NCBI GenBank assembly: GCA_021792255.1
Contig: JAJYUZ010000004.1
Coordinates: 99,468 to 163,467 of the forward strand
Length of the DNA stretch: 64,000 bases
From: Thermoplasmata archaeon
GTDB lineage: Archaea > Thermoplasmatota > Thermoplasmata > Thermoplasmatales > GCA-001856825
Direction of reading: 5' to 3'
The notes under the pieces are model-generated. The model ran no database searches. It was given only the letters and a program-made list of their open reading frames with translations, and had not been told where the DNA came from. Of this stretch, positions 10,745 through 64,000 are shown piece by piece (positions within the stretch are counted from its first letter, which is position 1; each line of letters starts with the position of its first letter). A program made the translations under genes and the position numbers.

Positions 10745-10873
10745 TAAGCACCCTATGACTACCATGATAAAAAACTAACCTATCTACACGAAATAATGGC
10801 TGTGCGGTTAGCTGTCAACATAGAACTCCTCAAACTAAACACATTCTTTATACCGACCGCAGGATACAGTTCC

Positions 10874-12236: not shown

Positions 12237-12451
12237 GATCTCCCATGGAGCATAGGTTATTACGCTTGCCGTCTGCGCGAGAAGAGGAAAGATATATTGC
12301 CAAGGTTCAAGAAGCAATGACCATTGCCACCTCCGGCAGATCTGGAGACGAGATCCTAACTTCGCCCATCTCGTCATTCCGGTGACAACCAGTTCAGGAG
12401 CCTTCCATGATACCCTGAAGGAATACCGATCCACGTCTGCCTTAAGGATGC

Positions 12452-14318: not shown

Positions 14319-15022
14319 AGCGATACCTCCTTTTCAAAATGGAATTCAGTGAATAAAATGAACCCCTGTCCTTGAGGATGGGATTCAAATTTACGTGGGT
14401 AGACGGGTTGCTTTTCATCACTCTTTCAATTGAAAATCTCTAATAAACGTTTCTGGTGATAGATTATCGTACACCTGAAGGTTTGACAGAAAGACCTTTT
14501 TCGGGCTCACGGGCAGAGGTAAGGACGGTACAATCGCAATGGCAATCTTATAATAGAGAGTATTCACACTGCTCTTTCTTGCCAGCTGACTTAATGCACA
14601 TTTTATCAAATGGTTCACATTTTCTTTCTATAACACAATTAGAAAACCACAAGAAAGCTAATTGGTGAGGGCAGTCTTGGCATATTATGGAAGAGCACGA
14701 GTTGGATGTTTCTGAAATATTCACGCCAAGGCTGACATATAAAACCATTTTTGACTTCTCAATAAGAATATGATAGGTCCATCTCATTTCATGAAGGAAT
14801 TTAATGGAATTTATTTGAACGAAAAGGGCAGAAGGGTCTTTGTTGAGGATTCCTAATAAGAATTTCTCCAATATCGCGCAGTGTAATGGATGACCATTTC
14901 TGAGCAAGACTGAAATTAGCTTGTTCTTCTGGACATAGCGTTTGATTAAGAACAACCGATCGGCTTCTGGGAAATTTGTATATAGATATTTAGCTCTTTA
15001 GCAAATTGAGAGGGAAAGAGAA

Positions 15023-31557: not shown

Positions 31558-32528
31558 CTTTCCCCCTCCAGTTTTTGAATCACCAGTGGAACGATTTCCG
31601 AGACATCTCCTACGATGCAGTAATCAGAATGATTGAAAATCTCTGATTTCTCATCGAGATCAATCGAGATCACGGTTCCACAATCCTTTATGCCAGACGT
31701 GAAATGTTCAGAGCCACTGACCCCGAGGATGAGGGCGATCTTGGACTTCAGTGAATAACCGGTGGATCCTACCTGCAGGTCTCTGGGAACGAGGCCCCTG
31801 TCAGCGAGCGGTCTGGTGACTCCAATGTCACAGTTGGTAAGTTCGGCCAGCCTCTTCACCAGGGTAATATCCCCTCCAGTGCCGTTACCTCCGACGATCG
31901 TCCGTTCCGATTTTGAGAGGTCCTTTATCTTAGACACGTTTCTTTCCAGAATCTTGACTCTGTTTTGAGTCTTGGTCAGATCGGGGACTATAGTGTTGAC
32001 CTTCCCTTTTCTCTTGGGATCGTAGACCTTGTTGAAAGTACCAGGTCTGACGGTGGACATTTGTGGACGCGCTTTCTCACAGACAATTTCTGCGACTATT
32101 TTTCCTCCGTAAGCGGGGACTCCAAAAATCACCTCGCCTTTCTCGTTCATTTCCATCGTAATTGCATTCGCAGTCAGGCCCGTGCGCAACTTTGCTGCCA
32201 GTCTTCCCGCCAGATCTCTTCCATATGGAGTAGCACCTATCAGGAAGGCGCTTGGCATCTCTTTATTGATCGAGTCAAATAGAGACTTTACGTACAGATC
32301 GTTCGAATAGGTGTTAAGGTCTTCGTGCTTTATCAAGAGAACCTTGTCAGCTCCGTACCTTATCGTCTCGCTTGCGACCTCTTCGTTTGGGGTCCCTAGG
32401 AGTACGCCAGTCAAAGAATACCCGAAGGCTCTGGTTATCTCCGAAGCCTTCCCCAGTATTTCGAGAGAGACCTCTTCTATCTCGTCTCCATCTCTCTCGA
32501 TGAACACCCAGATATCATTGCTTGTCAT
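31554..32528 (-). CDS. etfA: electron transfer flavoprotein alpha subunit
   Basis: GRDLAGRLA...GLTA, RPQMSTVRPG, QVGSTG, GVSGSEHF. Confidence 0.92.
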   Translation of the reverse strand: MTSNDIWVFIERDGDEIEEVSLEILGKASEITRAFGYSLTGVLLGTPNEEVASETIRYGADKVLLIKHEDLNTYSNDLYVKSLFDSINKEMPSAFLIGATPYGRDLAGRLAAKLRTGLTANAITMEMNEKGEVIFGVPAYGGKIVAEIVCEKARPQMSTVRPGTFNKVYDPKRKGKVNTIVPDLTKTQNRVKILERNVSKIKDLSKSERTIVGGNGTGGDITLVKRLAELTNCDIGVTRPLADRGLVPRDLQVGSTGYSLKSKIALILGVSGSEHFTSGIKDCGTVISIDLDEKSEIFNHSDYCIVGDVSEIVPLVIQKLEGER

Positions 32529-47679: not shown

Positions 47680-47746
47680 ACTTCTCAGATTCTTCTAATT
47701 TTTTTTCACTTCTTTTCTCTGGAGTCAGATCCGGATTTTGACGTAG

Positions 47747-47821
47747 TGGGGCCGATCGGATTTGGACCGACGACCTCCCGGTTATCAGCCGGGTGCTCTA
47801 ACCAATCTAAGCTACGGCCCC
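47747..47821 (-). tRNA. tRNA-Ile(GAT)
   Basis: GGGGCCGTAGCTTAG...CCCGG-CTGATAA-CCGGG...GGTCCAAATCCGATCGGCCCCA; T-loop is atypical. Confidence 0.92.
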
Positions 47822-47897: not shown

Positions 47898-48020
47898 TCA
47901 ATAATTTGTCCCTTCGAGAATTTGTCTTGCTATTCTCTTGACCTCCTCCTCTTCGTCAGCAACTCTTCTCATTTTTTGGAAGAAATTCTCTTCCGATATA
48001 GTCTCGAATTTCTCACTCAT
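47898..48020 (-). CDS. 40-aa hypothetical protein
   Basis: MSEKFETISEENFFQKMRRVADEEEEVKRIARQILEGTNY; BRE/TATA-like sequence at ~48051-48065. Confidence 0.45.
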   Translation of the reverse strand: MSEKFETISEENFFQKMRRVADEEEEVKRIARQILEGTNY

Positions 48021-48064
48021 ATGACATCTGTATGATAATTGTCTGACAACTATTAATACTTTAC

Positions 48065-48173
48065 TGCAGACCGGGCTTTGCACATAAAGTCAAGGAATTG
48101 GCCGACTTTACGTACGCTTTAAATACTTTGTGTGCAGGAAGCACTTCTTGTGCAGAATGGACTTTACGTGCAG
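48065..48173. repeat. left end of element A: 9-bp duplication, TIR and four subterminal 14-bp motifs
   Basis: GACTTTACGTACGC 48104, TACTTTGTGTGCAG 48124, CACTTCTTGTGCAG 48142, GACTTTACGTGCAG 48160. Confidence 0.85.
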
Positions 48174-48349
48174 AAGTGAAATTCTCAGATGGGCATCTTC
48201 GGCGTATGGTAATGATTTGGTTATCTTCGCTTAAGGATCCTTGTTATTACTTCGCTATCTTTTAACCGTATCCCATATATTACCTATGGCAAACATTGTA
48301 TCTTCTGTATCTCTTCAAGAGCCTCTTTTACTCAATAACACAAAGGTTG

Positions 48350-48862
48350 TTACTCTAGGGTAACCTCTCCACCGCCAGAAATTCTTATTGTAGCCCAATG
48401 ATAATTTTGTGTCTGAATTACCCCTTTAATCATCTGCTGTTGCGTCCTTCTATTACCATCCACATCTGAATGATCCAAGAAGACAATTCTATCGACTCCC
48501 CTGGCATTCATTCCATCAAATACCACAAAATCTACAGGATGAAATAATGTCTTTACATCTTGGGGGTTAAATCCGCTATCGATTAGTGATGGAATAATTT
48601 TCTTAAGTCTCTTTGGAAGCTCCCTTTGGGTCGCTTTGTTTATTGCCTTATCTCTCATCTCTCTTTCTCGAGACTCAAGATCGTCCATTTTCCCCTGTAG
48701 TTCTTCTTGCTTTTTCTCAATTCTGTCCAACCAATCGGGCACATACTCTGAGTTGTATGATATCTGGATGTCAACTAAGCGGAAAAGGGTCGTGCAGTGA
48801 GGACAAACTCCGAAAATATGGCGCTGTTCCCTTATTAGTGTTGATACCGACATATCGTTCAT
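48350..48862 (-). CDS. Holliday-junction-resolvase-like (Endonuc_Holl-type) protein, catalytic (E/D)xK apparently lost
   Basis: CPHC, coiled coil, DVKTLFHPVDFVVFDGM...IVFLDH. Confidence 0.75.
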   Translation of the reverse strand: MNDMSVSTLIREQRHIFGVCPHCTTLFRLVDIQISYNSEYVPDWLDRIEKKQEELQGKMDDLESREREMRDKAINKATQRELPKRLKKIIPSLIDSGFNPQDVKTLFHPVDFVVFDGMNARGVDRIVFLDHSDVDGNRRTQQQMIKGVIQTQNYHWATIRISGGGEVTLE

Positions 48863-49356
48863 AACTTGTACAACTCCAACTCCACTTTTTTTAGTCTAAC
48901 TGCATCTCTAATCTGTCTTTGGTTAGTCTTGAGTCTAGCACTACCAGTCTTGACATCTGAAAATACAATATTATCAACTAGATTCTTTACCGTAAGTCCA
49001 TCGAAGATCAAGTAATCTATTGGTTCTCCGAGGAATCTGCAATCATTAATGTGATATGGGAAACCTGGGAGTATAGGACCTACTTTTTCAACTATCTTAC
49101 CAACCTTGACTTCTATCGATTTTTGTGGAGCTCCTTTGGTGATTGATTCTTTTTTCTTCTTAATGTCCTCTTGTAATATTTCAAGTTCTACTTCGAACTT
49201 CTCTTTTTCTGTTTTTCCCTGAGAAGAGAAGAAATCAGAATAAAATAATCCAGCATTTTTCAGTTTGAACTGCTCTCCACAAGTTGGGCACTCACCGATA
49301 TATTTCGGGTCATTCGAAAGTTCATCTATTAATCCTTTGACCTGATGAGGCATCAT
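48859..49356 (-). CDS. Holliday-junction-resolvase-like (Endonuc_Holl-type) PD-(D/E)xK endonuclease
   Basis: CPTC, coiled coil, DCRFLGEPIDYLIFDGL...IVFSDVKTG.ARL...QRQIRDAV. Confidence 0.82.
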   Translation of the reverse strand: MMPHQVKGLIDELSNDPKYIGECPTCGEQFKLKNAGLFYSDFFSSQGKTEKEKFEVELEILQEDIKKKKESITKGAPQKSIEVKVGKIVEKVGPILPGFPYHINDCRFLGEPIDYLIFDGLTVKNLVDNIVFSDVKTGSARLKTNQRQIRDAVRLKKVELELYKL

Positions 49357-49449
49357 ATTGGACTACTGAGTGCCAGTATAAAAATAACTTTACCAATTAA
49401 AGTGTACTCTAAAAATGAAAAGAGATAGTCGACATACCCTATCGTTAGA

Positions 49450-50472
49450 TTATGAGGAGAAATTTGGCTCAATTCCCAGCTCGTACATCTCCTGAATCAA
49501 GACTAGAATGTTGTATGCGATCGCTTTGCATAGCAGCTCATTTTTTTGAGCAATTGGGTTCTTCGATTTTAGTGAATCTCCCAGCTTCTGCTTCATAGAA
49601 AAGAAAGTTGTCTCGACGTTGGATCTTGCGTGGTAATGCCTTTCAAATTCTTCCCTGTTGTATATGAACATTGCATACATCTTTCGATATATTTTGCTAC
49701 CCTTGGGTTTGCCAGTCGAATTGCTCTTAAAAGGTATATATGGAGTGCCTCCAATATTATCTATAAACGACAGATTCTTTCGTGAGAGATATGCCTTGTC
49801 CGCGTAAGCTTCCTCTATACTGAATCCAAGTCCTCTAGTTCTCTCGATCAGCGGCATAAATTGTTTTATATCTGCACTGTTCGCGTTTCCGATTTCGATC
49901 GCTGTTATTATATTAGTTTTTACGCCTATCGTAATATGGGCCTTTATCCAATTGTATTCTTTCTTGAGCCCATATTTCTGTAAGGCATACTCAGTAAACC
50001 TACTAGTTCTGAAACCAGAGCTATCTGTGGCAAATCCAGTTTCAACCGACCTCAAAGGCAGAGATGTTTTAGAAAGCAAGTCTTGTAGGATTTCTGTAAT
50101 TTCAGGTCTATTTAGGACTCTGGAAGAAATATTAAAGTGGGGTTTGTATACGATTTGACCCTTCTCCAGCGCAGAGATTAAGAAAGAGGCAGATCTTCTG
50201 ACCGACAGTTGAGAATACACCTTTTGAATCGTACAAAAGAGCTCATCCCTCAATAACGTTCTCGGTCGCCCCATACTTTGCAAAGGCTCATTTACGTCTG
50301 AAACCAAATCGCTTAGCAGTTCATTGAATATCCTAAATTCTTGGGTCTGGGCTAGGTTGTAAGCCTTCCAATCCTGTGGGTACGTAACCTTGATGGTCAT
50401 TAGTACCGACACATCTCTTTTATGGGAGTTATTGTTCCTTGCTTGCTCCGGTGGTTCTTTCACGGGCTCCAC
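49450..50472 (-). CDS. DDE transposase, IS4/IS5-like (DDE_Tnp_1 type)
   Basis: TYPQDWKAYN.AQ, ATDSSGF, WIKAH, ADKAY, YHARSNVETTF..KQKLG. Confidence 0.9.
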   Translation of the reverse strand: MEPVKEPPEQARNNNSHKRDVSVLMTIKVTYPQDWKAYNLAQTQEFRIFNELLSDLVSDVNEPLQSMGRPRTLLRDELFCTIQKVYSQLSVRRSASFLISALEKGQIVYKPHFNISSRVLNRPEITEILQDLLSKTSLPLRSVETGFATDSSGFRTSRFTEYALQKYGLKKEYNWIKAHITIGVKTNIITAIEIGNANSADIKQFMPLIERTRGLGFSIEEAYADKAYLSRKNLSFIDNIGGTPYIPFKSNSTGKPKGSKIYRKMYAMFIYNREEFERHYHARSNVETTFFSMKQKLGDSLKSKNPIAQKNELLCKAIAYNILVLIQEMYELGIEPNFSS

Positions 50473-50500
50473 CTTCTATCCAAAGATCCTTTTGCTGCCA

Positions 50501-50601
50501 TACCATATTACCGTAATACCGTATTGTCTACTTGAATATTAATATTGCGGTATCATGGTAAAACGGTATGCAAATATTTAATACCTTGATACCATATTAC
50601 C
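50501..50601. promoter_or_regulatory. divergent promoter with nine TACC/GGTA operator half-sites at 8-bp period
   Basis: TACC at 50501/50509/50517, GGTA at 50549/50557/50565, TACC at 50582/50590/50598, interleaved with TATA-like AATATTAATATT and TATTTAATA. Confidence 0.7.
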
Positions 50602-50604
50602 AGG

Positions 50605-50760
50605 GTGGAGAAAAGAAAGACATCAATAAATGTAGATCCTGACCTGTGGAATCAGTGGCTTCATTTTGTTTTAGATGAAACGGGTTCAACGAAGAAAGTA
50701 AGCGAAGAATTTGAAAAGGCACTTAAATTCTATATGAAGAGTAGAAATAAGGTTCATTGA
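50605..50760 (+). CDS. 51-aa ribbon-helix-helix DNA-binding protein, below the ORF-track cutoff
   Basis: MEKRKTSINVDPDLWNQWLHFVLDETGSTKKVSEEFEKALKFYMKSRNKVH: KTSINVD strand followed by two helices. Confidence 0.78.
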   Translation: MEKRKTSINVDPDLWNQWLHFVLDETGSTKKVSEEFEKALKFYMKSRNKVH

Positions 50761-50810
50761 ATTGAACGTAACTTTTCATACGACCTGTAGACAATTCCAG
50801 CCGGAATTTA

Positions 50811-53696
50811 CTATCCCTTAGCTTGTAATTCTTCGGCTATTATAGGGTATAAGTCGTCGATTATCTCATTTGCCTCATTTTTATCAAGACCCAAAATTTC
50901 TAGTACAGTAGAATCGAGAAGTCTTCGTTCGTCTATGTTCTTAACATACTGTTCAAGAATAGATGGGAAGTCAAATTTCTTTAGGCGTTCAAATAAAGTC
51001 TTGAGGACAAATTTCCGCTTGTCATCTAATCTGTCAAAGTTCAGTATGTCAAATGAAATCAGTTCACTTTCTCTTATATCAGTGAAGCCACCTGTTGTTT
51101 GTTCGCGATATGATAGTATATTTGCAATTGTTATGCTACTGTTAAGGAGTAGGGTTTGAGTAAATGCTTCTTCTTCACTTTTGAAATTTAAATTCTTGAA
51201 CGTATCTGGAGCAACAATTTTCTTGCTGGAGTAAAATGCAAAATGGTGAGTATTCCCTGAGTTTGGTCTGAATCTACGGCCAACGACCACATAACTCTCT
51301 TTCTTAGCAACATTCTTTTCGTGTTCTATCCAATTAAATTGTCCCTTCCACTTGGATATCGCTAATATTCTATTGAAGTTCTGAGGCTCACGAACGAGTA
51401 TATAATCGATTGATTCTGGGTTGAATGTTTTAACCGCAGTCAACGTTCTTAGTGCTGGCTTTATTGCGGAGTAAGGAATTTCTAGAGAGAAACTTCCATT
51501 TCCTAATTCTACACCTACTGAAGTTTTATATTCATTCTTGAGTACCAGGAATGCTCTCTCTACTCTTGCTTTGTCTGTAGAACGGGTTATAAAGACCAGT
51601 TCTGAAAGACCTGCTGGAGATGCATGGAACCCTTCTGAAATTATATCTCGAGGAATTTTCATCAATAGTCCATTTGACCTTGATCTGACTTTCTGCAAAA
51701 ACGAATCTAAAACATTTTTGTTTCTATATGAAGTAAATCCAATGAGAGGCATCAGATTGTCAGAATTTTCATTTAAACTCAGAGTTTTTATAAACTTGAC
51801 TTCAAACTGATTGGTGCTTTCGTCTCTGTGTGCCAGATAACAGGAGTTAAGTTCATAAGTTAGTTCCTTTAGTTCCTTCTCAGACATTTCTCTAATAGAT
51901 TTCTTTAGTGTTACAATTCCAGTATAGTCTATACTTTCAGGTTTTCCTTTCCTTGCAATGTATAACAAATCCTTAAAAGAAGAACCTTCGCTAAATGCAC
52001 GGTCTTTCAAAGGCTTTACAAAAAACTTGGCTTTATAATTTCGTAAAATGAATTCTCTTATCAGTCGAGTTGCTCTTCCTCTTGCAATATTTATTGGAAT
52101 TACGGCTGCAATTTTTCCATTAGATTTAAGCAGTTTATCACCGAGTGCCAAGAAATAACCCCAAAGATTTACTTGATTACCGCATATTCCGCGTAAGGTG
52201 TTCGAATTTAATTTGTCTCTCATTTCCCTAGGCATCTTTTCCCTATCACTGAAGGGAGGATTCATTATGACCAAATCAACTGGACGTAGAGGGAATGCCG
52301 AACCTCTGCCCTCACTAGAAACTGAGCCTTTTTTTCTCAGCAGTCTGTCATTATCTTCCTCTACAAGTGATTTCTGTATTGTTGCAGAATAGGGCTTTAC
52401 AACATATTTTCCTCTCTTGAATTGTGTTGTATCAAGTACTTCTGCCAACTCTAATGAATCCTGGGTCGCTATTCTCACGATGTTAGTCTTTTCTTCTATA
52501 CTCTGCATTGTTAAGTTAATGGCAGAAATGTGAGCGGCAAATGGCATTATGTCGATACCTGTTATGTCATCTTCAACGAATTTCCTATGAATTTTAGCTA
52601 GGTCTCTATCCCCGTATTCCTCCTGATATAAGTCTCTCTTTCTGTTGTAGCTAGAAACAAGAAGAGTTCCCGATCCGCATGCAGGATCAATGAGTGTTTC
52701 ACTCCATTTGTCTATTGCGAGTCCCGTCAACAAATCCGCTGAAGCAGGATGTGTATAAAATGCGGCTAAGATTTTTCTTACCTCAAACGGAATTAAATCA
52801 TGAAAAAATCTCCCTGCCAAGTCGTGTGTGATGTACTCAGCTCTCAGTAATTTTATAGCTTTAATTACCTCGTTAAGAATTTCTATTACATCCTTTGTTT
52901 CTGGAATATGAGCTAGAAGATTAACGCTATAAATTGATTTGTAATCTATATCTGTTATTTTATCGAAATAAGTCTTTATCCCTTGTAGGTGTTTTATTTC
53001 TTCCAAATCGAAAAAAGCATCATCGTCAAACTTAGCCTTCCTCTTGTATATGTGATAGAAGAGCAACTGATTGAATAGAAGAAATGATGCAAGATTTGTG
53101 ACTTGCTTTTTAGCAACCTCCTTATCTTTAATCTCTCCAATGGAAACGAATAAGTCAAGTTTGTTTACAACTTCAGAAACAAGTTCATCTGTTCGAATCT
53201 TAAAGACAACGGAATTGAGGTCGCTGGCGTATCTTTCAATCAATTTTACGGTGGTTGCGAAGTCAATCTTTGTCTCTCTTGCATCTATCAACCTCTTTAG
53301 TTGCTGAAAAAAAGAGGTAGGATTAGACGAAACAGTTTCGGTCCACAGATCTGTGAGAGTTGTGATACTCAGATTTGCATTCAGTGCGATCCGTCTAACT
53401 ATTTCATAATCGGTTATCGCTTCTTTACGTATTGAATCAGGATATATTAGAATAATAATATTTGGGGTTTTCAATCTTGTTCCATAATCATAAGCTTGAG
53501 CTACTGCTTTTAACCCTACAAGTTCAGGTTTTCCAACTTTAACTTCGATAACAAAGGACAAAGAGCCATATCTGAACAAAATATCCGGTTCGACGTCTTC
53601 GACAATCGTATTCCCAATTGCTTCGAATCCTAGCTCTTGAAGAAGTTTAATGATCGGAGGGTACAATGTAGTTTCTTCAATTCTCGGGTAAGCCAT
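50811..53696 (-). CDS. type IIG-like fused restriction endonuclease/N6-adenine methyltransferase
   Basis: N-terminal PD..VIEVK, AFYT, DPACGSG, GIDI, MNPPF; 961 aa. Confidence 0.9.
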   Translation of the reverse strand: MAYPRIEETTLYPPIIKLLQELGFEAIGNTIVEDVEPDILFRYGSLSFVIEVKVGKPELVGLKAVAQAYDYGTRLKTPNIIILIYPDSIRKEAITDYEIVRRIALNANLSITTLTDLWTETVSSNPTSFFQQLKRLIDARETKIDFATTVKLIERYASDLNSVVFKIRTDELVSEVVNKLDLFVSIGEIKDKEVAKKQVTNLASFLLFNQLLFYHIYKRKAKFDDDAFFDLEEIKHLQGIKTYFDKITDIDYKSIYSVNLLAHIPETKDVIEILNEVIKAIKLLRAEYITHDLAGRFFHDLIPFEVRKILAAFYTHPASADLLTGLAIDKWSETLIDPACGSGTLLVSSYNRKRDLYQEEYGDRDLAKIHRKFVEDDITGIDIMPFAAHISAINLTMQSIEEKTNIVRIATQDSLELAEVLDTTQFKRGKYVVKPYSATIQKSLVEEDNDRLLRKKGSVSSEGRGSAFPLRPVDLVIMNPPFSDREKMPREMRDKLNSNTLRGICGNQVNLWGYFLALGDKLLKSNGKIAAVIPINIARGRATRLIREFILRNYKAKFFVKPLKDRAFSEGSSFKDLLYIARKGKPESIDYTGIVTLKKSIREMSEKELKELTYELNSCYLAHRDESTNQFEVKFIKTLSLNENSDNLMPLIGFTSYRNKNVLDSFLQKVRSRSNGLLMKIPRDIISEGFHASPAGLSELVFITRSTDKARVERAFLVLKNEYKTSVGVELGNGSFSLEIPYSAIKPALRTLTAVKTFNPESIDYILVREPQNFNRILAISKWKGQFNWIEHEKNVAKKESYVVVGRRFRPNSGNTHHFAFYSSKKIVAPDTFKNLNFKSEEEAFTQTLLLNSSITIANILSYREQTTGGFTDIRESELISFDILNFDRLDDKRKFVLKTLFERLKKFDFPSILEQYVKNIDERRLLDSTVLEILGLDKNEANEIIDDLYPIIAEELQAKG

Positions 53697-54320
53697 TAGT
53701 TTTTCACCTTTGCTGTCACAAACAGTCTCTTTTTTGTCATACCAATCTGTTTCTTATGATACCATAGTATCACGTTACTTATCCTTTATTGTAATGAGCT
53801 GCTTAGAATAAGAAAAGAGAAAATAAGGGTGGGAAGAATATAAAGGAAGGAAACAGATATTAGAGATAGAAAGGGAGGTGTAATTGCAGGATCCACACCT
53901 TATTTTAACTCGCTATTTGTTTTGGACGGCCATAAACGGTAAAAACTCGATGTTCAGGCAGGTTAATGGCTCCCTCAGATCCTTCGAACCCTCCCCTTAT
54001 AAGAAGTCAATATGAACCGTGCACTACAACGCCTTAACAACCTGACTGCAAGTATTGCTACTAAAATCAGTACGCTTTGAATCAAAAATAAGAGTCTTGA
54101 CTCTTCGCCATTCGATTAATCTCATTAGGTGAATCTAAAGTTATTCACCGGTTTTGCTTCACTTTCTGAGGACATCTATCTCGTGACAAGAATGGTATAA
54201 TTTTCCTCTTGCTAAGAGCATAAGATCACTTGGTGAGTTCTCGAAAAGGGACTTTCCCTTAAGCTAAAAAAGTTATAATATCTGATGATCTTAGTAGAAT
54301 GATTATAGGAGTGAGACCAA

Positions 54321-56120
54321 CTGAACCCGAATGATTCACATAGCGGCATTAAAATTACAGAGATAAGAATTCGCAATTTCAGATCTTTGAAGAGTGTAAG
54401 TGTGCCATTAAACTGGTTGACAGTTTTGATCGGAGAAAATAATGCTGGAAAAAGTAACTTCATTGAGGCGATGAGAATAGCTATAGGTATAGGCGCAAGA
54501 AGAATTGAGAAAGAAGATATTTACGTCGATGTCGAAGAGACAGATCCTCCTGAGGATAGAGAGGCTATTATTGATTTGTTGTTAAGGCCAATTGATAATC
54601 AAGGTGAAACCATTAGCAAATTTCCCGACAACGACTATTGGCTAAACCTATGGGGGGCTGGTATATCGGAAAACGACACTCTTGGTGAATTCATGGCAAT
54701 CAGAACAAGACTATACTGGAACAAGGAAGAAATGAGATATGAAATTGAAAGAAAATACCTAAAGGATTGGCAGCATGATCCAGAAAAAATCGGCCAATCC
54801 AAGACGAAAGAAATAATACGTTTTGATCAGATAGAACCCGTATCTTTATATGTCTTAGACACAAACAGAGATGTTAAAAATGATCTTGTAAAGACTGGTT
54901 CTATATGGCATCAGATGGTTTCTGCCACCAAATTTGACGATTCAGACAGCAAAGATATCGAAGGCAAAATCGAAGAATTGAATCAAATAATAAATTCAAA
55001 CAAGTTTATAGTGGAGATTAAAGAAGGTCTGAAGGAGCTTAGTAAGACTTTTAATTCAGGAAGTGACTCCGTTGCGCTAACCTCTATACCCAGTAGGACA
55101 AGAGATTTGATGGACAATGTTGGTATTAACTTTGCAACAAATGGGGCAGGCTCATTCCCAATCGAACGACATAGCTCTGGTACCAGAAGTGTCGCATCAG
55201 TTTTAATTTTTAAGACTTACATAGAACGGAGAATGAAACTGGATAATGAACGGAAAATACACCCAGTTTTAGCAATTGAAGAACCTGAGACCCATTTGCA
55301 TCCTCAAGCAGAAGACTCGTTCTATAGAATCGTAAAGAATTTTTATGGTCAAAAAGTAATAAGTACCCATTCTCCTCGAGTGGCAAGTTTATCAGGACTT
55401 CGAGATCTACGGTACTTCTACAAGACTGGCAGTGAGACAAATATTGTCTCGATGGAAAACGATTTCTTATTGGAAGAAGACGAACACCTTGTTAGAAGAA
55501 AAGTCCTAAAAACACATGGTGATATATTTTACTCTAGAGCAATCGTTTTGTATGAAGGAGAGGAAACGGAGGATCAAGTACTTCCGCTTTTTGCATTAGA
55601 GTACTGGGAAGAAGAATATTCCTCTTTGGGAATCACTATGGTAAATGTAAATGGACAAAAGTACTATCCTTTCCTTCTACTTGCCAAGACCTTCCAAATT
55701 AAGTGGTACATATTTTCAGACGGGGAGCCTAATACTGTTGCAGCTGTTGAGAATGCTGTAAATAAGATTGGTACCAAAATTGTTTCGCCAAATATTGTCA
55801 TACTCCCAGACGGAAAGAGTTTCGAGAAATACATATCAAGTAACGAATATAAAGAAGTATTAAAGGAAATGATTGTAAATGTCAAAAGCAAAAACGAATA
55901 TCATAAAAGGGCACTTGAAGCAGAGTGTGAAAAGTGGACTTTAGATGACTTAATTAACGAGTTAAAGGATAATAAAACATTATATGCTCCAAGAATAGCT
56001 CCTGCGATTTTATCTGTCAAAGACGAAGAACTTCGATTTCCTGCAAAAATAAGAGAACTGTTTGAAAAGATTTCTAATGATTTTGGTTTTAAAAGGAGGG
56101 ATATAGATCATAGATCCTAG
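54321..56120 (+). CDS. OLD-family ABC-ATPase/TOPRIM nuclease (GajA-like)
   Basis: IRIRNFRSL, GENNAGKS, SSGT, IEEPETHLHPQ, STHSP, TOPRIM YEGE.E and SDGE; start appears non-canonical (CTG 54321 or ATT 54348; ORF track uses TTG 54387). Confidence 0.9.
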   Translation: MNPNDSHSGIKITEIRIRNFRSLKSVSVPLNWLTVLIGENNAGKSNFIEAMRIAIGIGARRIEKEDIYVDVEETDPPEDREAIIDLLLRPIDNQGETISKFPDNDYWLNLWGAGISENDTLGEFMAIRTRLYWNKEEMRYEIERKYLKDWQHDPEKIGQSKTKEIIRFDQIEPVSLYVLDTNRDVKNDLVKTGSIWHQMVSATKFDDSDSKDIEGKIEELNQIINSNKFIVEIKEGLKELSKTFNSGSDSVALTSIPSRTRDLMDNVGINFATNGAGSFPIERHSSGTRSVASVLIFKTYIERRMKLDNERKIHPVLAIEEPETHLHPQAEDSFYRIVKNFYGQKVISTHSPRVASLSGLRDLRYFYKTGSETNIVSMENDFLLEEDEHLVRRKVLKTHGDIFYSRAIVLYEGEETEDQVLPLFALEYWEEEYSSLGITMVNVNGQKYYPFLLLAKTFQIKWYIFSDGEPNTVAAVENAVNKIGTKIVSPNIVILPDGKSFEKYISSNEYKEVLKEMIVNVKSKNEYHKRALEAECEKWTLDDLINELKDNKTLYAPRIAPAILSVKDEELRFPAKIRELFEKISNDFGFKRRDIDHRS

Positions 56121-56121
56121 A

Positions 56122-57963
56122 TTGACAGAAAAACAGCGAGAAATTATTGAATCAAGCAATGAATCAATGTTAGTGGTTGCTGGCCCCGGCGCGGGAAAGA
56201 CTAAAGTGATAACTGATCGAGTAAAGTACGTACTTACAAACATAAGTGGCAACTTTCGTGTATTGGCTCTCACGTTCACGAACAAAGCAGCTAACGAAAT
56301 GAAAGACCGGTTATACGAAATTCCCGATCTGGAAAAGAGGGCCTTTGTCGGCACTATTCATAGTTTCTGTAGTTCAATATTGAAAAACAGGGGGGAACCT
56401 GTAGGTTTGGGAGATGATCTGCATATTCTGAACACAATCGAGGATAGGAAGAAAGTACTGATAGAGTCATTAAATCTCGATCCAGAGCTCAAGAATACTC
56501 TAAAAAGTACTTTAAGTGATCAAAATCAGGAAAAATTGTTGTCTAAGTGGCTAGAAGCCATTAGTCAATTTAAACGAGATCTTATTCTACCAGAAATGGT
56601 AAAAGAAGAGACAGATAGACGAATTTACGAAATTTATGACTCGACTATGAGAGCGTCGAATCTTTTTGATTTCGACGATTTGTTACTGAAAACCTATACA
56701 CTCTTTGTCAGTAACCCTTCTATTCCAGAGTTCTATAGAAGGCTGTACAAGTATATTTGTATCGATGAAGCTCAAGATCTTAATAGAGCACAATATGAAA
56801 TAATCAGATTAATGTGCGAGTCAAATCACAATAATGTCTTGATGGTAGGAGATCCTAATCAATCAATATTCGGTTTTGTAGGAGCTAATAAAAAGTATAT
56901 GGACTTGTTTGAAAAAGATTTTGATGCCAGAAAGATACATTTGGATGAAAATTTCCGCTCAGCCAAAGCAATAACGACCGCAGCCCGCAAAATAATTCCT
57001 GATGTGGACATCAATGAAAATCTGCCCGTAAATGGAGTTGTGTCCCTTATCGTAGGAAACGATGAAAAAGAAGAAGCCGAACTAGTCCTGAAAAAGTTGA
57101 AGGAGTTTGTTAACAATGCCGATTCAACTGAAGATAAACTTACTTGGAACAGTTGTGCTTTGATTGGGCGTAATAGATACGTCTTGTATCCTATCGAGTC
57201 GGAACTCATATCGAACGGAATACCCTACTATAAGCAAGAATCTATCAAGCAATTAAGCGAATCAGATCTGATGAAAGAATTCGAATTGGGACTTGAAATT
57301 CTATCTAATCCTCAAGATTTGCTCCATCTGAAGGCTCTGCTGAGTAGATGGAATTCATCGGTAGATCCTAGAGATCTCGTAGATTCCGGAATTCAAGGAC
57401 AAGAGGTCATAAAAAGACTTAAGAATTTAAGTGTTACAAAAAACGATGTGGTATTAGAGGCCCTTTCAAAGGTCTCGACTGGACCCAATAAATTCTCTCT
57501 GAATGAGTCATTAGTATTTTTGAAAAATAGTACAGCTGGAATAAGAGATACTGAAGAAAGAGAACTACTGATAAAGGATATCACGGAGTGGAACACTCTG
57601 TGGAATTATTATCTAAGAAATCAAAATCTTATAGAGCGTTCACCAGCTAAATTTTTGAACTTTACAAGCGAACGCTCGATCAAAAAGGAGGACAATAATG
57701 GACTTGCTTTACTGACAGTTCACTCTGCGAAGGGACTGGAGTTCGAATTAGTAGTAGTTATGGGGATGGTTGAGGGGGTATTTCCAGACTATAGGGCACA
57801 TGGAAAAGATCTGGACGAGGAAAAGAGGAATGCATTCGTATCGATTACAAGGTCTAAACGTTTTCTTTTTTTGTCTTATCCCAAAACTAGACTAATGCCA
57901 TGGGGGGAAATATTCAAGGTCAAGCCGTCGAGATTTCTATTCGATATTGGTCTACTCCCGTAG
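56122..57963 (+). CDS. UvrD/Rep SF1 helicase (GajB-like)
   Basis: AGPGAGKT, TFTNKAA, IDEAQD, VGDPNQSIFGF, NFRS, TVHSAKGLEF, FVSITRSK; follows the OLD nuclease. Confidence 0.92.
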   Translation: MTEKQREIIESSNESMLVVAGPGAGKTKVITDRVKYVLTNISGNFRVLALTFTNKAANEMKDRLYEIPDLEKRAFVGTIHSFCSSILKNRGEPVGLGDDLHILNTIEDRKKVLIESLNLDPELKNTLKSTLSDQNQEKLLSKWLEAISQFKRDLILPEMVKEETDRRIYEIYDSTMRASNLFDFDDLLLKTYTLFVSNPSIPEFYRRLYKYICIDEAQDLNRAQYEIIRLMCESNHNNVLMVGDPNQSIFGFVGANKKYMDLFEKDFDARKIHLDENFRSAKAITTAARKIIPDVDINENLPVNGVVSLIVGNDEKEEAELVLKKLKEFVNNADSTEDKLTWNSCALIGRNRYVLYPIESELISNGIPYYKQESIKQLSESDLMKEFELGLEILSNPQDLLHLKALLSRWNSSVDPRDLVDSGIQGQEVIKRLKNLSVTKNDVVLEALSKVSTGPNKFSLNESLVFLKNSTAGIRDTEERELLIKDITEWNTLWNYYLRNQNLIERSPAKFLNFTSERSIKKEDNNGLALLTVHSAKGLEFELVVVMGMVEGVFPDYRAHGKDLDEEKRNAFVSITRSKRFLFLSYPKTRLMPWGEIFKVKPSRFLFDIGLLP

Positions 57964-58596
57964 ACAAGAACTCTCCATACCTAGTAAATCTCAGCAGACT
58001 TTTGATCCAATAACTAGATAGATTATGTCGAATCCTTTTCGATTTTTAGTTTTAAGATAGATCTTAGATACCAAATGAACATCATTTGACACTTTGTGAC
58101 GTAGTCTTTACTCATTATATGATTTGACGAAATTTCTGTGGGTAGGAGGTTTGGTAACATGGCAGCACATAATAGTCTAAAATCTGAACGGGTTCCCCTT
58201 TTGCGCCATTTCCAAGTGTTACAAATGTACTTAATGCCTCCCTTTGTCCAAGAGCAAGCAGATTGGGCCTCTTACACATGTTGACTATGCTCTAAAGGGG
58301 CAATCTGATGAAAATCGCTTTAGAGAACTTTTCCATGTTTTTGTCTCTTATCTGAAATGATTAATCATATTTGGAAAACTAGATTTATCTCATATTAACC
58401 CTTCAAATGCAGAAAGCGTAGTTCAGTCTATGTTCAACGATTTCTGCAATAAATGTGGATTCAAGACTTCTGTAATGGAAGAAATATGGGAAGAGGTTCA
58501 TAGAATTTTCAATTATAAACGGAAGAATTGAATAAGAGTGATATGCCCAAATGTAATCGATATCGCCCTTAAATTGACATTTAGTATGTCTTTTAG

Positions 58597-59673
58597 TCAA
58601 TTTCCTGAAGGAGTAATAGTGTTGAGATACTCAGTAGCTTCTTTCCTTGTGGTCAGTTCCTTCCTAACGTATTTAATGTCTTCAGTGCTTTTTTCATGAA
58701 TATTACCCAGATATCGGGATTGTTCCCCATAAATAGATGCCTTCAATTTGTTTGAGTTATATGAAGAAATATTCTGATTTGTATAATCGTAAACAAATTC
58801 TGCAAGGTCAAAATCTACTCTCTTATTAGTGTTGCTTCCTCCTCCCCCAGGAAGAACGGCATTTGAAGCCCCTATTATGTCGAATCCAAGGAATGACAAC
58901 AAGAATTCCTTTGCTAGGTCTCTCTTCTTATTCTTGCTCATTCGGGGTCTACTAACGTTATAAGCGTAATATATTGGGTAATAACCCTCAGTTATGTATT
59001 TTCGTTTGAGCTCAAGCAACTTTGCTATAGACCTCATGTATCCGTCCGGGTTGGCTCTCTTAAAATCTATCATCAGTGGTATAGCATTCAATTTTTCTCC
59101 ACCTTCCGAGATTACTTGCTCCTTTGCCTTACCGGAGTAGAAATTGACGTACTTCTCCAGATCATTATAGCTAACATATGCTGGGATATAACCTAAGAGA
59201 TTTTTCCCGTCTAGCACACTTGAAAATGTCTCGTAAATCTTGGTGCTTTCTTTAAAAATCTCTTCAAAAGCTCCCTCTCTGTAGAACTTAAAGGAATATG
59301 GCATACCGATCAAATGATCATTAAACAACACTTCAAATTTGCTGAGTAATCCTATGTCTTCGAAGTTTGCAACTTTTTGCGGGTCTACTTCTTTATCTCC
59401 GAAGAAAGAAAATACATTTATGTTTCCTTCGACTTCTTTCTTCTTGATCCTTTGTTCTATTCTCTTATCAAATTCCTGGTAGCTATCTTCACCTGGCAAG
59501 TCGTCTGAGCTAATTGGGACGAGAACTTCTGAAAAGTATTGATCATTAATGACCCCGGGAACCTTTCTGAAAGCACGAGAAGGTGTCTTTCTTCTAATTC
59601 CTTCTCTATTTGATACAGAAAGAGAATAAATGTTACTATCATTTTCACTTCCAGGCAAAAGATTAAATCTCAT
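58597..59673 (-). CDS. hypothetical protein, possible TGT-like TIM barrel
   Basis: 358 aa alpha/beta pattern (KTP, LLGYIP, MIDF, YAYNV, LGFDIIG); fold guess only. Confidence 0.6.
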   Translation of the reverse strand: MRFNLLPGSENDSNIYSLSVSNREGIRRKTPSRAFRKVPGVINDQYFSEVLVPISSDDLPGEDSYQEFDKRIEQRIKKKEVEGNINVFSFFGDKEVDPQKVANFEDIGLLSKFEVLFNDHLIGMPYSFKFYREGAFEEIFKESTKIYETFSSVLDGKNLLGYIPAYVSYNDLEKYVNFYSGKAKEQVISEGGEKLNAIPLMIDFKRANPDGYMRSIAKLLELKRKYITEGYYPIYYAYNVSRPRMSKNKKRDLAKEFLLSFLGFDIIGASNAVLPGGGGSNTNKRVDFDLAEFVYDYTNQNISSYNSNKLKASIYGEQSRYLGNIHEKSTEDIKYVRKELTTRKEATEYLNTITPSGN

Positions 59674-59726
59674 AACAATCGATATTGATTACTAAACATA
59701 TATATTTTCCCAAATGATAGACTTCT

Positions 59727-60326
59727 GTGCCTAAAGAACAAAGGAAGAAAACACTTGACCTATTCACTATTGGCGACCTTATAGACAAGGCAATCGTCTT
59801 TCTAGCAACGAACAATACTATCACAACACTAAGCTTACAAAAGGCAATATTCCTCTACTTGTATTCATACGCTGTTACTAACGGTTATGATTTCAATAAT
59901 GTTCTTAGAATGGCTTCATTCGAACCGTATAGGTTTGGCCCCTTCAGTGATGCTGTAGTCGGTCAAGCAGAAACGCTGGTTGGATACGGGAAAATCCGAA
60001 GTGGAGGATCTGGCGAGAAGCAAATCTTCGGTACGATTGACAAAGGTCTTGAAAAGCTTAATTTGAGCAAAGACGAAAAGAGACTACTCACTAATATTAA
60101 AAAACTGGTTGAAACCCTTGAACCAATGGAATTAACTTTTTACATCTATTTCAATCCGTTAATAGATCAGTCACTAAGAGATTATTTCACTTCAAAGTCA
60201 GAAATAAAGGATAGCCTATTAAAGCGCAAGGATACTTATGTCAGAGACCTTCTTAAAAAGGGTGCAATTGACGAAGAAACTGCCGAATTGATGATTTATG
60301 GGAACAATCAAGACACGATTAATTGA
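59727..60326 (+). CDS. SocA/Panacea (DUF4065)-like antitoxin
   Basis: LSLQKAIFLY...FEPYRFGPFSDAV motif. Confidence 0.7.
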   Translation: MPKEQRKKTLDLFTIGDLIDKAIVFLATNNTITTLSLQKAIFLYLYSYAVTNGYDFNNVLRMASFEPYRFGPFSDAVVGQAETLVGYGKIRSGGSGEKQIFGTIDKGLEKLNLSKDEKRLLTNIKKLVETLEPMELTFYIYFNPLIDQSLRDYFTSKSEIKDSLLKRKDTYVRDLLKKGAIDEETAELMIYGNNQDTIN

Positions 60327-60861
60327 CACGGATGTCATATCAAATATTTTGAAAACCCTTCCCAAGGGAACCATTAAATATGAAATCAATGAATTGGAGA
60401 ACTTTAGAATCGTAACGTCAAACATAGTTGAAAAGGAGGTTCGGATTTTGCTAAGGAAGATTGAAAATGGTGATACTCGTGGATTAAGAGGTAAAAAAGT
60501 TTTAACAGAAGAAACAGTTTCCCTCTGGAAGCAATTTAAAAATGTAATTGAAATCAAAGAATCTATTGTTGATCCTTCTCAACTTAAGAATGTTGGTGAA
60601 AGGTCGCTTGTAAACTTGTTGAAAAGAGCTGATTTGAAATCTAGAATTGTATCAAATAACAGAGAACATGTCCTAAAAATCTTAAAAGAAGAAGGGATAA
60701 ATGGAAATTTCTTGGAAACGCCATTTGAATTCTATGAAGAATTAGGGAGAGAATGGTTCAGGAGTAGAAGCGAAACGATTCTGTTTATGATTTTTGCTAA
60801 TCACGACTTCCGCATCTTAGATAAGAAGTATACTGGAGATATTTTGAGATACGTTCACTAA
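60298..60861 (+). CDS. PIN-domain protein (putative ribonuclease toxin)
   Basis: LIDTDV, IVEKEV, VGERSL, IVSNN; overlaps the upstream gene. Confidence 0.68.
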   Translation: MGTIKTRLIDTDVISNILKTLPKGTIKYEINELENFRIVTSNIVEKEVRILLRKIENGDTRGLRGKKVLTEETVSLWKQFKNVIEIKESIVDPSQLKNVGERSLVNLLKRADLKSRIVSNNREHVLKILKEEGINGNFLETPFEFYEELGREWFRSRSETILFMIFANHDFRILDKKYTGDILRYVH

Positions 60862-60989
60862 CCAACTTACTTCTGCATAATTTCTGTTCACTCAACTGAA
60901 GATAGATAGGACATTTTAGAGCCGATATAGGCTCGGCTAATAGGTTTAAGTTCCAATGAATTCTTGGGATTTGCATGATAAAATAAGTA

Positions 60990-62477
60990 GTAATTGGTCA
61001 GTTTAATGTGCACCTTAACCCGGATGTGGTTTGCCTCTTCTTATCATCCCAGGAACATCCCTGATGAAACTCTTCTTCCTGATCTTGGTAGTATAGAAGA
61101 TGGAATGCAATCTTGCATAGGTACTGGCACCGCGATCTGACCTCGACCCACCAGATGTCTTCCTGTATATGACTGCTGGCCTGAGTGCCCTCTCCGCCCT
61201 GTTATTTGTGGAATCAACACTTGGATCAACCACGAACCTGAACAGCCACTCTTTTCTCCTCTTAAGAAGTTTTTCAACGGACTTCCTTGAACGGAGGTGT
61301 TCGTAACCGGTATCGAGGAGGAATATAAGCCTGTCGTACAGGCGATCAACATCTTCAGATGTGCCATTTCCGTTGAACGATTTCGCCTTATTGTAGATTG
61401 ACTTCAGTGATTTCTTCATCCTCCTTCCCTCATTCCCATAAAACGATTCGAGTTCCCTTGCGTCTGATATTATGTGAGCCCAGCAGTACTTCTGATCGTT
61501 GTGCGTCTTTGATGCTAGCGTTTCGAATGCTGAAAACCTGTCGTGGACATCCGTTCCGTTGTGCTTTCCGAGTACTTTGAGTGCTACCTCGTGACTATTG
61601 CTCTCCGCCACAATGAATATCGCCTCCCCTTTAGTCACGAAAGTCCATAGATCGCAGTTCTCTCCGTCTATTCTGTATGACGTTGTGTCCATATTCCTTG
61701 ACGGAGCTTTCCTGATGGATTTCAGGAGACTTCTGTATTCATCTCCGAGTGCATCAGAGAGCTGGTACAGAATTTCCTGCACCTCCACTTCAGATATTTT
61801 AAGACCGAACACCTCTTTCATTGTAACTGAAACGTTCTCAAGGCTCATCCTCATTGCAATCCTGAAGTATGATGCAATGAGCATCGCCCTCAAGGACAAC
61901 CTGGTGTTGGGAAGTGCTTCCGGCATCTGTGGCTCATATGTCTTACCGCAATTCTTGCAGTACATCCTCTCTATTCTGTACTGCACAACCCTGGGACGTA
62001 TTTCAGGGATGTCCTCAATCACCCTCTTCCTGATGCCCTTCCTGACGAGAGGAGACGAGCACATAGGGCAGGTGAATTCTCCTGCCTTTAGAGTGACTCT
62101 TTCTGTTACTTTTGGAGTTCTCCTGAAGTGTCCCTTATGACCGAGCTGTGCTCCAGGGTTCTTGGTGCTCTTCTCCTTTTGGGAATGTTCCTCCATGATA
62201 AAGTACGCCTTCCCATTCTTCACTCCCACGGTGGAGGGATGCCGTTTCTTGTACTCTTCAATCTCCTTCTTGAGTCTCTCGTTCTCCTCCTTTATTTTCC
62301 TGATCTCATCACCGAGCTTCTTGTTCTAGTCAACAAGATAATCTACGATCTCCTGATCCCTTGGAGTCTCTGCGAGCAGTGCGATCATCTTGCTATTATA
62401 AAGTGGTAGTATTCATGATTTATGGTGATCAAACCCGGTAAATTACCACTGTCAAGCACAATCGGCTGACCTGTTAC
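60990..62477 (-). mobile_element. IS66-family insertion sequence (single-ORF, ISBst12-like)
   Basis: TIRs GTAATTGGTCAG... and ...CTGACCTGTTAC; 8-bp TSD AATAAGTA at 60982-60989 and 62478-62485. Confidence 0.92.
61015..62388 (-). pseudogene. IS66 transposase with an in-frame TAG at codon 21
   Basis: coiled coil, PGAQLGHKG, CPMC..CKNC, DTTS, CWAH, TNNRAERALRP; TAG at 62326-62328; reinitiation at GTG 62229 is possible. Confidence 0.8.
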
Positions 62478-62530
62478 AATAAGTAGAAGACTTTATGATT
62501 CAGATATTTTTATAGTTTCATCGATAAATA

Positions 62531-63259
62531 ATGCCTCTTATGATAATATGGAGAAAAATTGGAACCATCAATCAATTTAGAGTAGCACTGCATCAGCTTA
62601 TCGAAGCCAAGGGCGACGAACTGATATTAAGCTCAGGCTACGTCTCACATGGTTCTCAGTTTTCAGTTTACGACCAGTCAAATATACTCCCTTCTATGAA
62701 GGTTGCCATCGCAAATGGATTAAAAAATGTGACAATTAGAGCAGGCAAATTTAGAAGGTTTTCACAATCTACTCCCACCTCGTTGAACGCCTTACATCAT
62801 AACATAAATGGGAACAGCTCTTATCAGGAAAGGTACGAAGAGTTTCTTTATAATTTGATACCATTCTTGAAAAGTAATCTAACCAGCATCAACATTAATG
62901 CGTATATCCATAATAACTGGCATGCTAAGGTCGCAGTCAGAGCCGATCAAGGAAGACCTTTTGCTGCAATAATTGGGAGTAGTAATTTGACATCAACGGC
63001 GTATGGAGTATATCCGAACAACTACAACTGGGAATGCGATGTTCTAATTTGGAGAGCGGATTATCCAGTAATCAGGGAATTTAGCTTCAGTTACGATGAA
63101 AATAGAGAGGGAAAAGACGATAAAATCATTCACTTTGCATCGAAATCTGATTACTTTTATTTTGAATATCTTCCAGAAAGGGATGAGGAATCAAGATTGA
63201 TTGGCATATATAATGAAGTTAAAAATGCCGAAGGAGGTATAAGAACACCAACTGATTGA
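62531..63259 (+). CDS. PLD-family (NgoFVII/BfiI-like) nuclease
   Basis: SSGY, WHAKV...IIGSSNLT...N.ECDV single HxK domain. Confidence 0.8.
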   Translation: MPLMIIWRKIGTINQFRVALHQLIEAKGDELILSSGYVSHGSQFSVYDQSNILPSMKVAIANGLKNVTIRAGKFRRFSQSTPTSLNALHHNINGNSSYQERYEEFLYNLIPFLKSNLTSININAYIHNNWHAKVAVRADQGRPFAAIIGSSNLTSTAYGVYPNNYNWECDVLIWRADYPVIREFSFSYDENREGKDDKIIHFASKSDYFYFEYLPERDEESRLIGIYNEVKNAEGGIRTPTD

Positions 63260-63275
63260 TTTTTGTGCCTTCATA

Positions 63276-63456
63276 TATTAAATGTGCAACCTCGATCTTA
63301 TGTGCAAGATTGACTTTATGGGCAAAAACGACTATTTGTGCAAAGCCTGCAGACCGGGCTTTGCACCTAAAATCAGGGGTTTGTCGTCTTTTAGGTGCAC
63401 CTTTTATATTTTAGATGCAAGCTGTATTTTAGGTGCAGAGTTGATTATAAGTATAA
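63276..63456. repeat. junction: right end of element A, 9-bp duplication, left end of element B
   Basis: motifs at 63276, 63294, 63312, 63330 (18-bp period); TGCAGACCG 63348-63356; GGCTTTGCACCTAAAATC 63357-63374; motifs at 63387, 63407, 63425. Confidence 0.85.
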
Positions 63457-64000
63457 AACCTAATTGCACTGACCCTAATCTTCTACCGGAGCGGTGTATT
63501 GTTCTAGAAGTTGATTGGCCAAGAATGTGACAAACGCTCTGTTGTTACCTTTGTCAGCGACTTCTATTGCATCATAATAACGTTCCTTGTTTACAAACTC
63601 AATTATGACCGGCGGATACTTGTTCCTGAAAAGAACCCAATTCATAAGGAGCCTCGCAGTTCTCCCATTGCCATCTGTGAAAGGGTGTATATTGACAAAT
63701 CTGTTATGTAAGACTGAGGCAAGTTCCACAGGATGCAGTTTCTTCTTCTCTAGTCTAAAGTCGCTGAACAGGGTTTCGATCAGAGTTGGTATGTAAGCCG
63801 GATTAGGAGGAATATGCTCTGATCCCATTATGCGCACATCGCTGTCTCTGTACTCGCCTTGAATTCTGCAAGACGTATTCTTTGTGACTTCGTATTGAAC
63901 CTTACAAACAAACGATTTGTTCAGTCCATCTTTGTACGTTTTTATAAACTCCCAAGCATCTGCACTATTGAGGGTCTCAATAACATCATTCGTTCTTGCA
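63357..64000. mobile_element. left part of a second, related transposon (element B), running beyond the window
   Basis: TIR and subterminal motifs at the same offsets (+30, +50, +68) as the left end of element A. Confidence 0.75.
63475..63999 (-). CDS. Fic-domain protein (5' end outside the window)
   Basis: IHPFTDGNGRTARLL; frame stays open to the window edge. Confidence 0.93.
   Translation of the reverse strand, partial: ARTNDVIETLNSADAWEFIKTYKDGLNKSFVCKVQYEVTKNTSCRIQGEYRDSDVRIMGSEHIPPNPAYIPTLIETLFSDFRLEKKKLHPVELASVLHNRFVNIHPFTDGNGRTARLLMNWVLFRNKYPPVIIEFVNKERYYDAIEVADKGNNRAFVTFLANQLLEQYTAPVED

Follow-up and report, generated by a model that had tools for sequence, protein, structure and literature searches.

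Known insertion sequences of the IS903 group are about 1 kb in length and carry one gene. Tn7, Mu, and Tn5053/Tn402 have ends with several transposase sites each, one end being a contiguous head-to-tail series and the other being arranged differently, and elements of these types employ an rve/MuA-type transposase together with an AAA+ regulator (TnsB/TnsC, MuA/MuB, TniA/TniB). Work on how multi-site asymmetric ends function has so far used Mu and Tn7, both of which are multi-protein systems. In eukaryotic Mutator/MULE elements, a transposase with a SWIM zinc finger occurs together with a duplication of 9 bp and multiple subterminal binding sites. IS903B is described with the inverted repeat GGCTTTGTTGAATAAATC and a direct repeat of 9 bp (PMC10569121); for the ISAba12 group, GGCTTTGTTGCACAAA and 9-bp duplications are given (PMC6382973). 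IS903 prefers targets of the type WTTYA-N9-TRAAW (PMC2577343), the latter source also listing the Mu element of plants with a 9-bp duplication. In respect to archaea, Tn7-family transposons are reported across this domain (bioRxiv 10.1101/2025.07.27.667033), whereas according to a 2019 survey passenger-carrying DNA transposons had not been detected therein (PMC6563490).

Within the analyzed stretch of Thermoplasmata DNA (64,000 nucleotides, hereafter the window), positions 48074-63347 represent a DDE transposon of 15,274 bp, with arrays of a short motif forming both of its ends. We refer to the end adjoining the 3' end of the transposase gene as the DN end and to the far end as the UP end. Both start with GGCTTTGCAC as part of an 18-bp terminal inverted repeat (TIR), located at 48074-48091 on the plus strand for the DN end (GGCTTTGCACATAAAGTC) and at 63330-63347 on the minus strand for the UP end (reverse complement GGCTTTGCACAAATAGTC); 16 of 18 bases match between the first and the reverse complement of the second. 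The element is bracketed by two identical copies of the 9-bp target site duplication TGCAGACCG at 48065-48073 and 63348-63356, the right copy doubling as the spacer to a neighboring element. A 20-mer, CTGCAGACCGGGCTTTGCAC, appears exactly twice and in direct orientation (48064-48083 and 63347-63366), consisting of the 9-bp duplication plus the first bases common to two related terminal repeats. The G+C content drops from approximately 0.45 outside the element to 0.37-0.40 inside. A tRNA-Ile(GAT) gene (47746-47821) is located about 250 bp from the insertion site and a 40-aa ORF without family match (47898-48020) adjoins it, neither of them overlapping the duplication. An RNA family at the ends was considered and rejected, as Rfam gave nothing beyond the five tRNAs, and comparison of the left end with a plasmid collection gave no DNA match. 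By gene content (HdrA2 above its curated cut-off, formate dehydrogenase present), the host is a methanogen-like or ANME-like archaeon.

At the DN end, a minus-strand copy of the motif (48078-48091) lies inside the TIR, followed by four plus-strand copies that are inverted with respect to the terminal repeat (48104-48117, 48124-48137, 48142-48155, and 48160-48173). These correspond to offsets of +30, +50, +68, and +86 and to spacings of 20, 18, and 18 bp. At the UP end, three inner plus-strand copies (63276-63289, 63294-63307, and 63312-63325) share the orientation of the UP TIR, and a possible degenerate fifth copy of this end, read by eye, matches 10 of 14 bases at 63258-63271 (plus strand). 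The window element thereby holds five copies at the DN end and four to five at the UP end. All nine 14-bp copies reported in a preliminary description of this locus were recovered, including the minus-strand copy within the left TIR and the four plus-strand copies of the right end, which start exactly 18 bp apart (63276, 63294, 63312, and 63330). Allowing up to two mismatches to the consensus, 10 matches were counted in the window against an expectation of 1.22, a number reached in none of 100 shuffles, and seven of these 10 fall in the end regions. Tandem Repeats Finder reported a period of 18 at both ends independently. Lone matches to the end motif were observed at 12127-12145, 28440-28458, and 32284-32297; chance can account for this count, and none of the three has a terminal repeat in its vicinity.

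The transposase gene (49450-50472, minus strand) encodes a DDE transposase (PF01609, E 2.7e-23) of the IS5 family, IS903 type. The kinship is distant: over residues 28-321, the protein shares approximately 25% of its residues with IS5-family enzymes encoded on Klebsiella plasmids, and the score for the NCBI IS5 model NF033579 (115.6 bits) stays under the cut-off of 140. An alignment of 26 sequences revealed D150, D225, and E287 as well as the Y280-R283-E287-K294 motif to be invariant columns; the D-D-E triad and the YREK motif within a DDE_Tnp_1 transposase are shared with the IS903 group. The AlphaFold model of the protein (pLDDT 81.8, residues 1-30 disordered) was identified by fold search as a DDE transposase nearest to Tn5 (TM 0.53), while the best E-value was obtained for the IS256-family ISCth4 (TM 0.35). 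Of 5324 candidates in a protein search, 3552 qualified as relatives (E <= 0.001); among the best 120 relatives, most are about 400 aa in length and the few with an organism name stem from uncultured archaea. The identical window transposase is recorded on seven contigs. An N-terminal SWIM-type zinc finger of about 70 aa is present in 21 of the 26 aligned family members and missing from the window transposase and its four nearest relatives (P0002-P0005): P0002, P0003, and P0005 have no finger, and the N-terminus of P0004 is unrelated. SWIM-less relatives of 77-84% identity have the same length as the window transposase, which retains the IS903-type-alignable region from residue 28 onward. No separately encoded SWIM-like peptide was found anywhere in the window (best E-value 0.11). 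A nested simple insertion sequence around the transposase was ruled out, since no inverted repeats were found hugging the gene.

Roughly 18-bp TIRs starting with GGCTTTG, a 9-bp duplication, and the transposase together show that the window element shares the signature of the IS903 group. In contrast to this group, it measures 15,274 bp and has multi-site ends, compared with about 1 kb, one gene, and one site per end in a simple insertion sequence. On family level, the elements described below further differ from the IS903 group by at least three sites per end in an asymmetric arrangement, by the N-terminal SWIM zinc finger of most members, and by a size of at least 2.4 kb in all 44 delimited elements, each of which consequently holds DNA beyond the transposase gene of about 1.2 kb. 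In respect to Tn7, Mu, and Tn5053, several putative sites per end, their unequal arrangement, and a large cargo including defence genes are common features, whereas the duplication has 9 bp here and 5 bp there and the lone conserved gene encodes an IS5-type protein. No rve/MuA-type transposase, AAA+ regulator, TnsA, or TniQ was found among the scanned ORFs of the window element (Pfam, NCBIfam). Likewise, rve/MuA and AAA+ families were absent from 124 scanned ORFs (of 128, the ORFs from L076 and L078 being excluded) of 24 related elements, except for an unrelated nested insertion sequence in L068. Archaeal Tn7-family elements, as reported, are alike in cargo and DDE chemistry and unlike in transposase family and machinery. 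The preliminary description had aligned the locus with Tn7, Mu, and Tn5053 and set it apart from simple IS4/IS5 elements. The comparison is apt as an analogy; the transposase, however, is an IS903-type protein of the IS5 family, and the multi-site architecture therefore falls inside this family rather than outside. The resemblance to Mutator/MULE elements (SWIM zinc finger, 9-bp duplication, several subterminal sites), compared by fold search alone, is a lead only, the catalytic domain being of the DDE_Tnp_1 (IS4/IS5) type and the SWIM finger N-terminal here.

The cargo of the window element comprises 10 genes or more. Two paralogous minus-strand genes (48350-48862 and 48859-49356; PF10107, E 1.1e-15 and 4.6e-30), which separate the transposase from the DN end and run in the same direction as the transposase, have products that combine a CxxC zinc ribbon with a coiled coil and a nuclease domain resembling the Holliday junction resolvase Hjc. 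These nucleases were considered as a conserved TnsA-like partner and rejected; no homologue was found in the 80 related loci, and they are therefore treated as cargo. A plus-strand ORF of 51 aa (50605-50760), ribbon-helix-helix-like by eye and without family match, is divergent from the transposase. It is followed by a type IIG restriction-modification enzyme with an N6 methylase fused to a nuclease (50811-53696, minus strand), a close homologue of which lies inside the L026 element (E 5.5e-289), and by the Gabija genes gajA (54387-56120, plus strand; PADLOC E 2e-161) and gajB (56122-57963, plus strand; PADLOC E 1.2e-204). Three ORFs (58597-59673, minus strand; 59727-60326 and 60298-60861, plus strand) gave no Pfam or NCBIfam family and a weak PADLOC match to PDC-M19A only. 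An IS66-family transposase gene (61015-62229, minus strand; NF033517, 196.3 bits, cut-off 180) represents a separate insertion sequence within the cargo, and a weak phospholipase-D-like nuclease (62531-63259, plus strand) scored below cut-off for both PF13091 (E 3.1e-4) and PF09565 (E 1.2e-4).

Extension of the analysis toward a one-genome-per-species collection gave at least 609 candidate stretches and at least 575 confirmed transposase relatives, of which 80 related loci were kept for analysis. The best locus relative shows 60% transposase identity, meaning that the window's own genome is absent from the scanned collection. Hosts of the family are DPANN, Thermoplasmata, methanogen or ANME genomes, and some bacteria. 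Termini of the GGCTTTGCAC type flank the transposase in many loci, and 16 of 19 end pairs picked by eye have perfect 9-bp duplications. An end detector requiring the repeats was positive for one end or more in 60 of 81 sources, with canonical ends of the direct-copy type (41) and of the inverted-copy type (35), and 19 of 22 automatic end pairs had perfect duplications. For a non-circular delimitation, solely GGCTTTG-like termini and identical 9-mers were used, ignoring the inner copies. This led to 45 elements of 2,381-13,394 bp in 43 of the 80 loci, one pair of which (L058:2977-8362) is probably false; the duplications of all 45 differ in sequence. Methylase or restriction-modification genes were detected in 12 of 24 complete elements scanned, and further family cargo includes NYN, Fic, HicB, PD-(D/E)XK, and UvrD genes. 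Given a cargo of restriction-modification, Gabija, Fic, NYN, and HicB genes, the family is a candidate vehicle for archaeal defence islands. We found no published description of the family, its ends, or the SWIM fusion in the literature, and the family may be named in ISfinder. Among the 10 matches listed, of 95, in a literature search for the end 10-mer, there were unrelated primers only. A large family of cargo elements with multi-site ends thus apparently has not been described.

The 45 delimited elements and the window element were combined into a set of 46 for scoring the end layout. Throughout the family, the UP end consists of the terminal repeat and direct copies at +18 and +38, and the DN end of the terminal repeat and inverted copies at +30 and +50. 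At these four inner positions, the motif of the element itself matched on average 10.7, 10.4, 9.7, and 10.0 of 13 bases, compared with 8.0, 7.9, 7.3, and 7.8 for the motifs of the other elements, a contrast inflated by close kin (e.g., L038/L040 and L068/L069); at control offsets, the own motif matched 5.1-5.6 bases. At least nine of 13 bases were matched at all four positions in 35 of the 46 elements, the remaining 11 being under this value at one or more of them. The direct-copy end is always located upstream of the transposase gene, a rule which the window element obeys with the 3' end of its transposase pointing towards the inverted-copy end. The layout of three plus three sites is a family trait, and the unequal multi-copy arrays noticed in the preliminary description are transposon ends. 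Members of a bacterial subgroup have a direct copy at +49 in place of the inverted one at +50. The window element deviates by its UP-end spacing (18, 18, and 18 bp versus 18 and 20 bp in the family) and by the extra copies at +68 and +86, the DN ends of the relatives having those at +30 and +50 only. With usually five to six and at most eight copies in total, every relative is exceeded by the window element.

Which protein occupies the inner copies can be approached by the gene content of the family. As no protein family other than the transposase is common to all 44 elements (the next, an N6 methylase, occurs in 13 of 44), the transposase is the likely binder. A host factor is unlikely in this role, as it would not co-vary with each individual element. 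The co-variation of the copies with the terminal repeat of the respective element is what sites for the own transposase predict, so that the previously proposed arrays of transposase sites gained support on sequence level. We consider it probable that the locus is a 15.3-kb unit transposon, the own IS903-like transposase of which binds every motif copy. The DDE transposase encoded at 49450-50472 would move the region 48074-63347, and each motif of 13-14 bp would serve as a site for the sequence-specific N-terminal part of the protein. The outermost copy inside the 18-bp TIR would mark the place of cleavage and strand transfer, and target cuts staggered by 9 bp would give rise to the 9-bp duplication. 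The inner copies are predicted to load extra transposase protomers, on sites that would run head-to-tail at one end (0, +18, and +38) and inverted at the other (0, +30, and +50). Because of the direct versus inverted arrangement, the two ends are structurally different; the complex could distinguish them on this basis and bias the orientation of insertion. The family would then offer a minimal one-protein system for multi-site asymmetric ends. The main caveat on the transposase as binder is the missing SWIM domain of the window copy, which would need a helper if SWIM is the domain reading the motif.

A different assignment, which we rate as improbable, restricts the transposase sites to the terminal 18 bp and attributes the inner copies to RNA/DNA structure or regulation: a hairpin at the DN end would terminate or stabilize the transposase transcript or insulate the flanking genes, and the direct copies of the UP end would be operators for a small regulator. 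The outward transcript of the DN end indeed folds into a hairpin more stable than shuffles in six of six ends folded (z -1.9 to -8.3), and the co-variation at +30 could accordingly reflect pairing instead of protein binding. Pairing with the terminal repeat is, however, impossible for the direct copies (+18, +38) and for the second inverted copy, all of which are equally conserved and co-varying, and the pairing partner within the hairpin varies between elements. In respect to a regulator, many elements have a small DNA-binding-type gene divergent from the transposase. These genes belong to unrelated folds (Zn ribbon in 10 of 40, RHH-like, and HTH_3), with 10 of 40 being the largest group, and are missing from many elements; consequently, they cannot account for a family-wide motif. 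In addition, the UP arrays are kilobases away from the transposase promoter. A structural role of the inverted copies is possible as an added function and cannot explain the direct copies. The zinc-ribbon group comprises conserved genes of 50-65 aa with four cysteines, located about 90-170 bp from the transposase start in L005, L010, L022, L029, L031, L039, L055, L074, L076, and L078.

Even less credit is due to the reading that the transposase gene has no relation to the ends and represents a nested or decayed insertion sequence, with the 15-kb region being an immobile remnant or moved in trans by something else, which we regard as very unlikely. The distance of 1.36 kb between gene and end, a stretch that includes two nuclease genes, the missing SWIM domain of the family, and the unrelated IS66 transposase within the cargo would fit such a scenario. 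It is opposed by the absence of inverted repeats around the gene and by the relatives, which in 43 of 80 loci lie between GGCTTTG ends of this kind, in many cases with further genes separating transposase and end. Moreover, the window element follows the orientation rule and combines a perfect duplication with intact catalytic residues, and both the identical protein on seven contigs and the equal length of the SWIM-less relatives of 77-84% identity count against this reading. Finally, the idea of two tandem recombinase-integrated islands, with CTGCAGACCGGGCTTTGCAC as the attL/attR core and the arrays as arm-type sites of an integrase or excisionase, can be practically dismissed, as the exact direct 20-bp repeat, the tRNA-Ile gene about 250 bp off, and the low-G+C defence island character of the region are outweighed by a 20-mer that resolves into the duplication and the shared start of the TIRs without overlap with the tRNA gene, by the lack of any integrase or recombinase family (tyrosine or serine) among the scanned element ORFs (Pfam, NCBIfam), and by 45 different 9-bp duplications instead of a constant att core at the ends of relatives in unrelated sites, which argues for transposition rather than site-specific integration.

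For the unit transposon with its own transposase, the preliminary description had further suggested that the arrays enforce end pairing over long cargo. Site number and element length are uncorrelated (Spearman rho -0.05, p 0.74), and the link to long cargo is therefore not supported; the layout of three plus three sites is already present in elements of 2.4-2.8 kb. The suggestion of oriented insertion fared better, receiving some support from the target flanks. Within 44 reconstructed empty sites, T was found at -12 in 36, A at -13 in 27, and T at -14 in 26 cases, resulting in a TATA-box-like consensus T-A-T-W-W-A-W-A at -14 to -7. Like in the IS903 group, the target preference resides in the flanks and not in the duplicated bases, at a different distance (-14 to -7 versus -5 to -1 in IS903). 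In 22 of 44 sites, the flank of the upstream end has the dinucleotide AT at -13/-12, compared with 10 of 44 at the mirror position (background 0.071), with 18 sites having it on the upstream-end side (left) only and six on the other side (right) only. The window represents an exception, its motif TTAATA (48053-48058, 6 bp from the duplication, fitting T-W-W-A-W-A at -12 to -7) adjoining the end with the inverted copies. In bacterial members, GATAA occupies this position of the flank, which argues for recognition by the transposase rather than by the archaeal TBP. In respect to a possible promoter function of the flank motif, its distances to the nearest ORF starts on both sides revealed no clear pattern.

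At its right border, the window element abuts a second related element, of which the DN-type end (63357-63438, plus strand) is contained in the window and the remainder lies beyond. The TIR at 63357-63374 is followed by inverted copies at 63387-63400, 63407-63420, and 63425-63438, i.e., at +30, +50, and +68, in the same layout as the left end of the window element, and the first gene inside is a Fic-domain gene (63475-63999, minus strand). Back-to-back termini with a 9-bp spacer were counted nine times in 1.38 Mb (L006, L021, L026, L038, L053, L057 twice, L076, and the window), with the right-hand partners at L006 and L076 looking doubtful, compared with zero to three cases for each of the other spacers between 0 and 30; a tenth 9-bp junction is found in L021 at 11966/11976. 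Junctions lie at 63330-63374 in the window, at 1954-1998 and 11949-11993 in L021, and at 14295-14339 and 15728-15772 in L057. In both L021 and L057, three elements share one 9-mer; insertion of new copies thus takes place within the duplication that borders a resident end. We propose that incoming elements may be captured by transposase bound at the resident end, and stacking across the shared 9-bp spacer suggests a simple route of island growth. Mimicry of the flank motif by the resident ends was considered and rejected, the repeat sequence by eye not matching in register.

Taken jointly, these features would describe a widespread single-protein cargo class of the IS5 superfamily with convergent Mu/Tn7-style ends, flank-reading, and end capture, a combined reading that we put forward as possible, if rather unlikely to hold as a whole. 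The asymmetric three-site ends would serve target choice as well as end pairing, and the transpososome would read a TATA-box-like element 6 bp from the cut, possibly as bent promoter DNA, and insert in a preferred orientation. Transposase at resident ends would capture newcomers, and defence cargo would thereby accrete across 9-bp spacers. Apart from junctions between complete elements, a miniature element of 99 bp (L038:11113-11211) with family-type inverted repeats and no gene is separated by 9 bp from the terminus of a full element. We also observed one family element nested in another, each with its own 9-bp duplication (L035:130-13523 / 5892-13052; L058:5967-11455).
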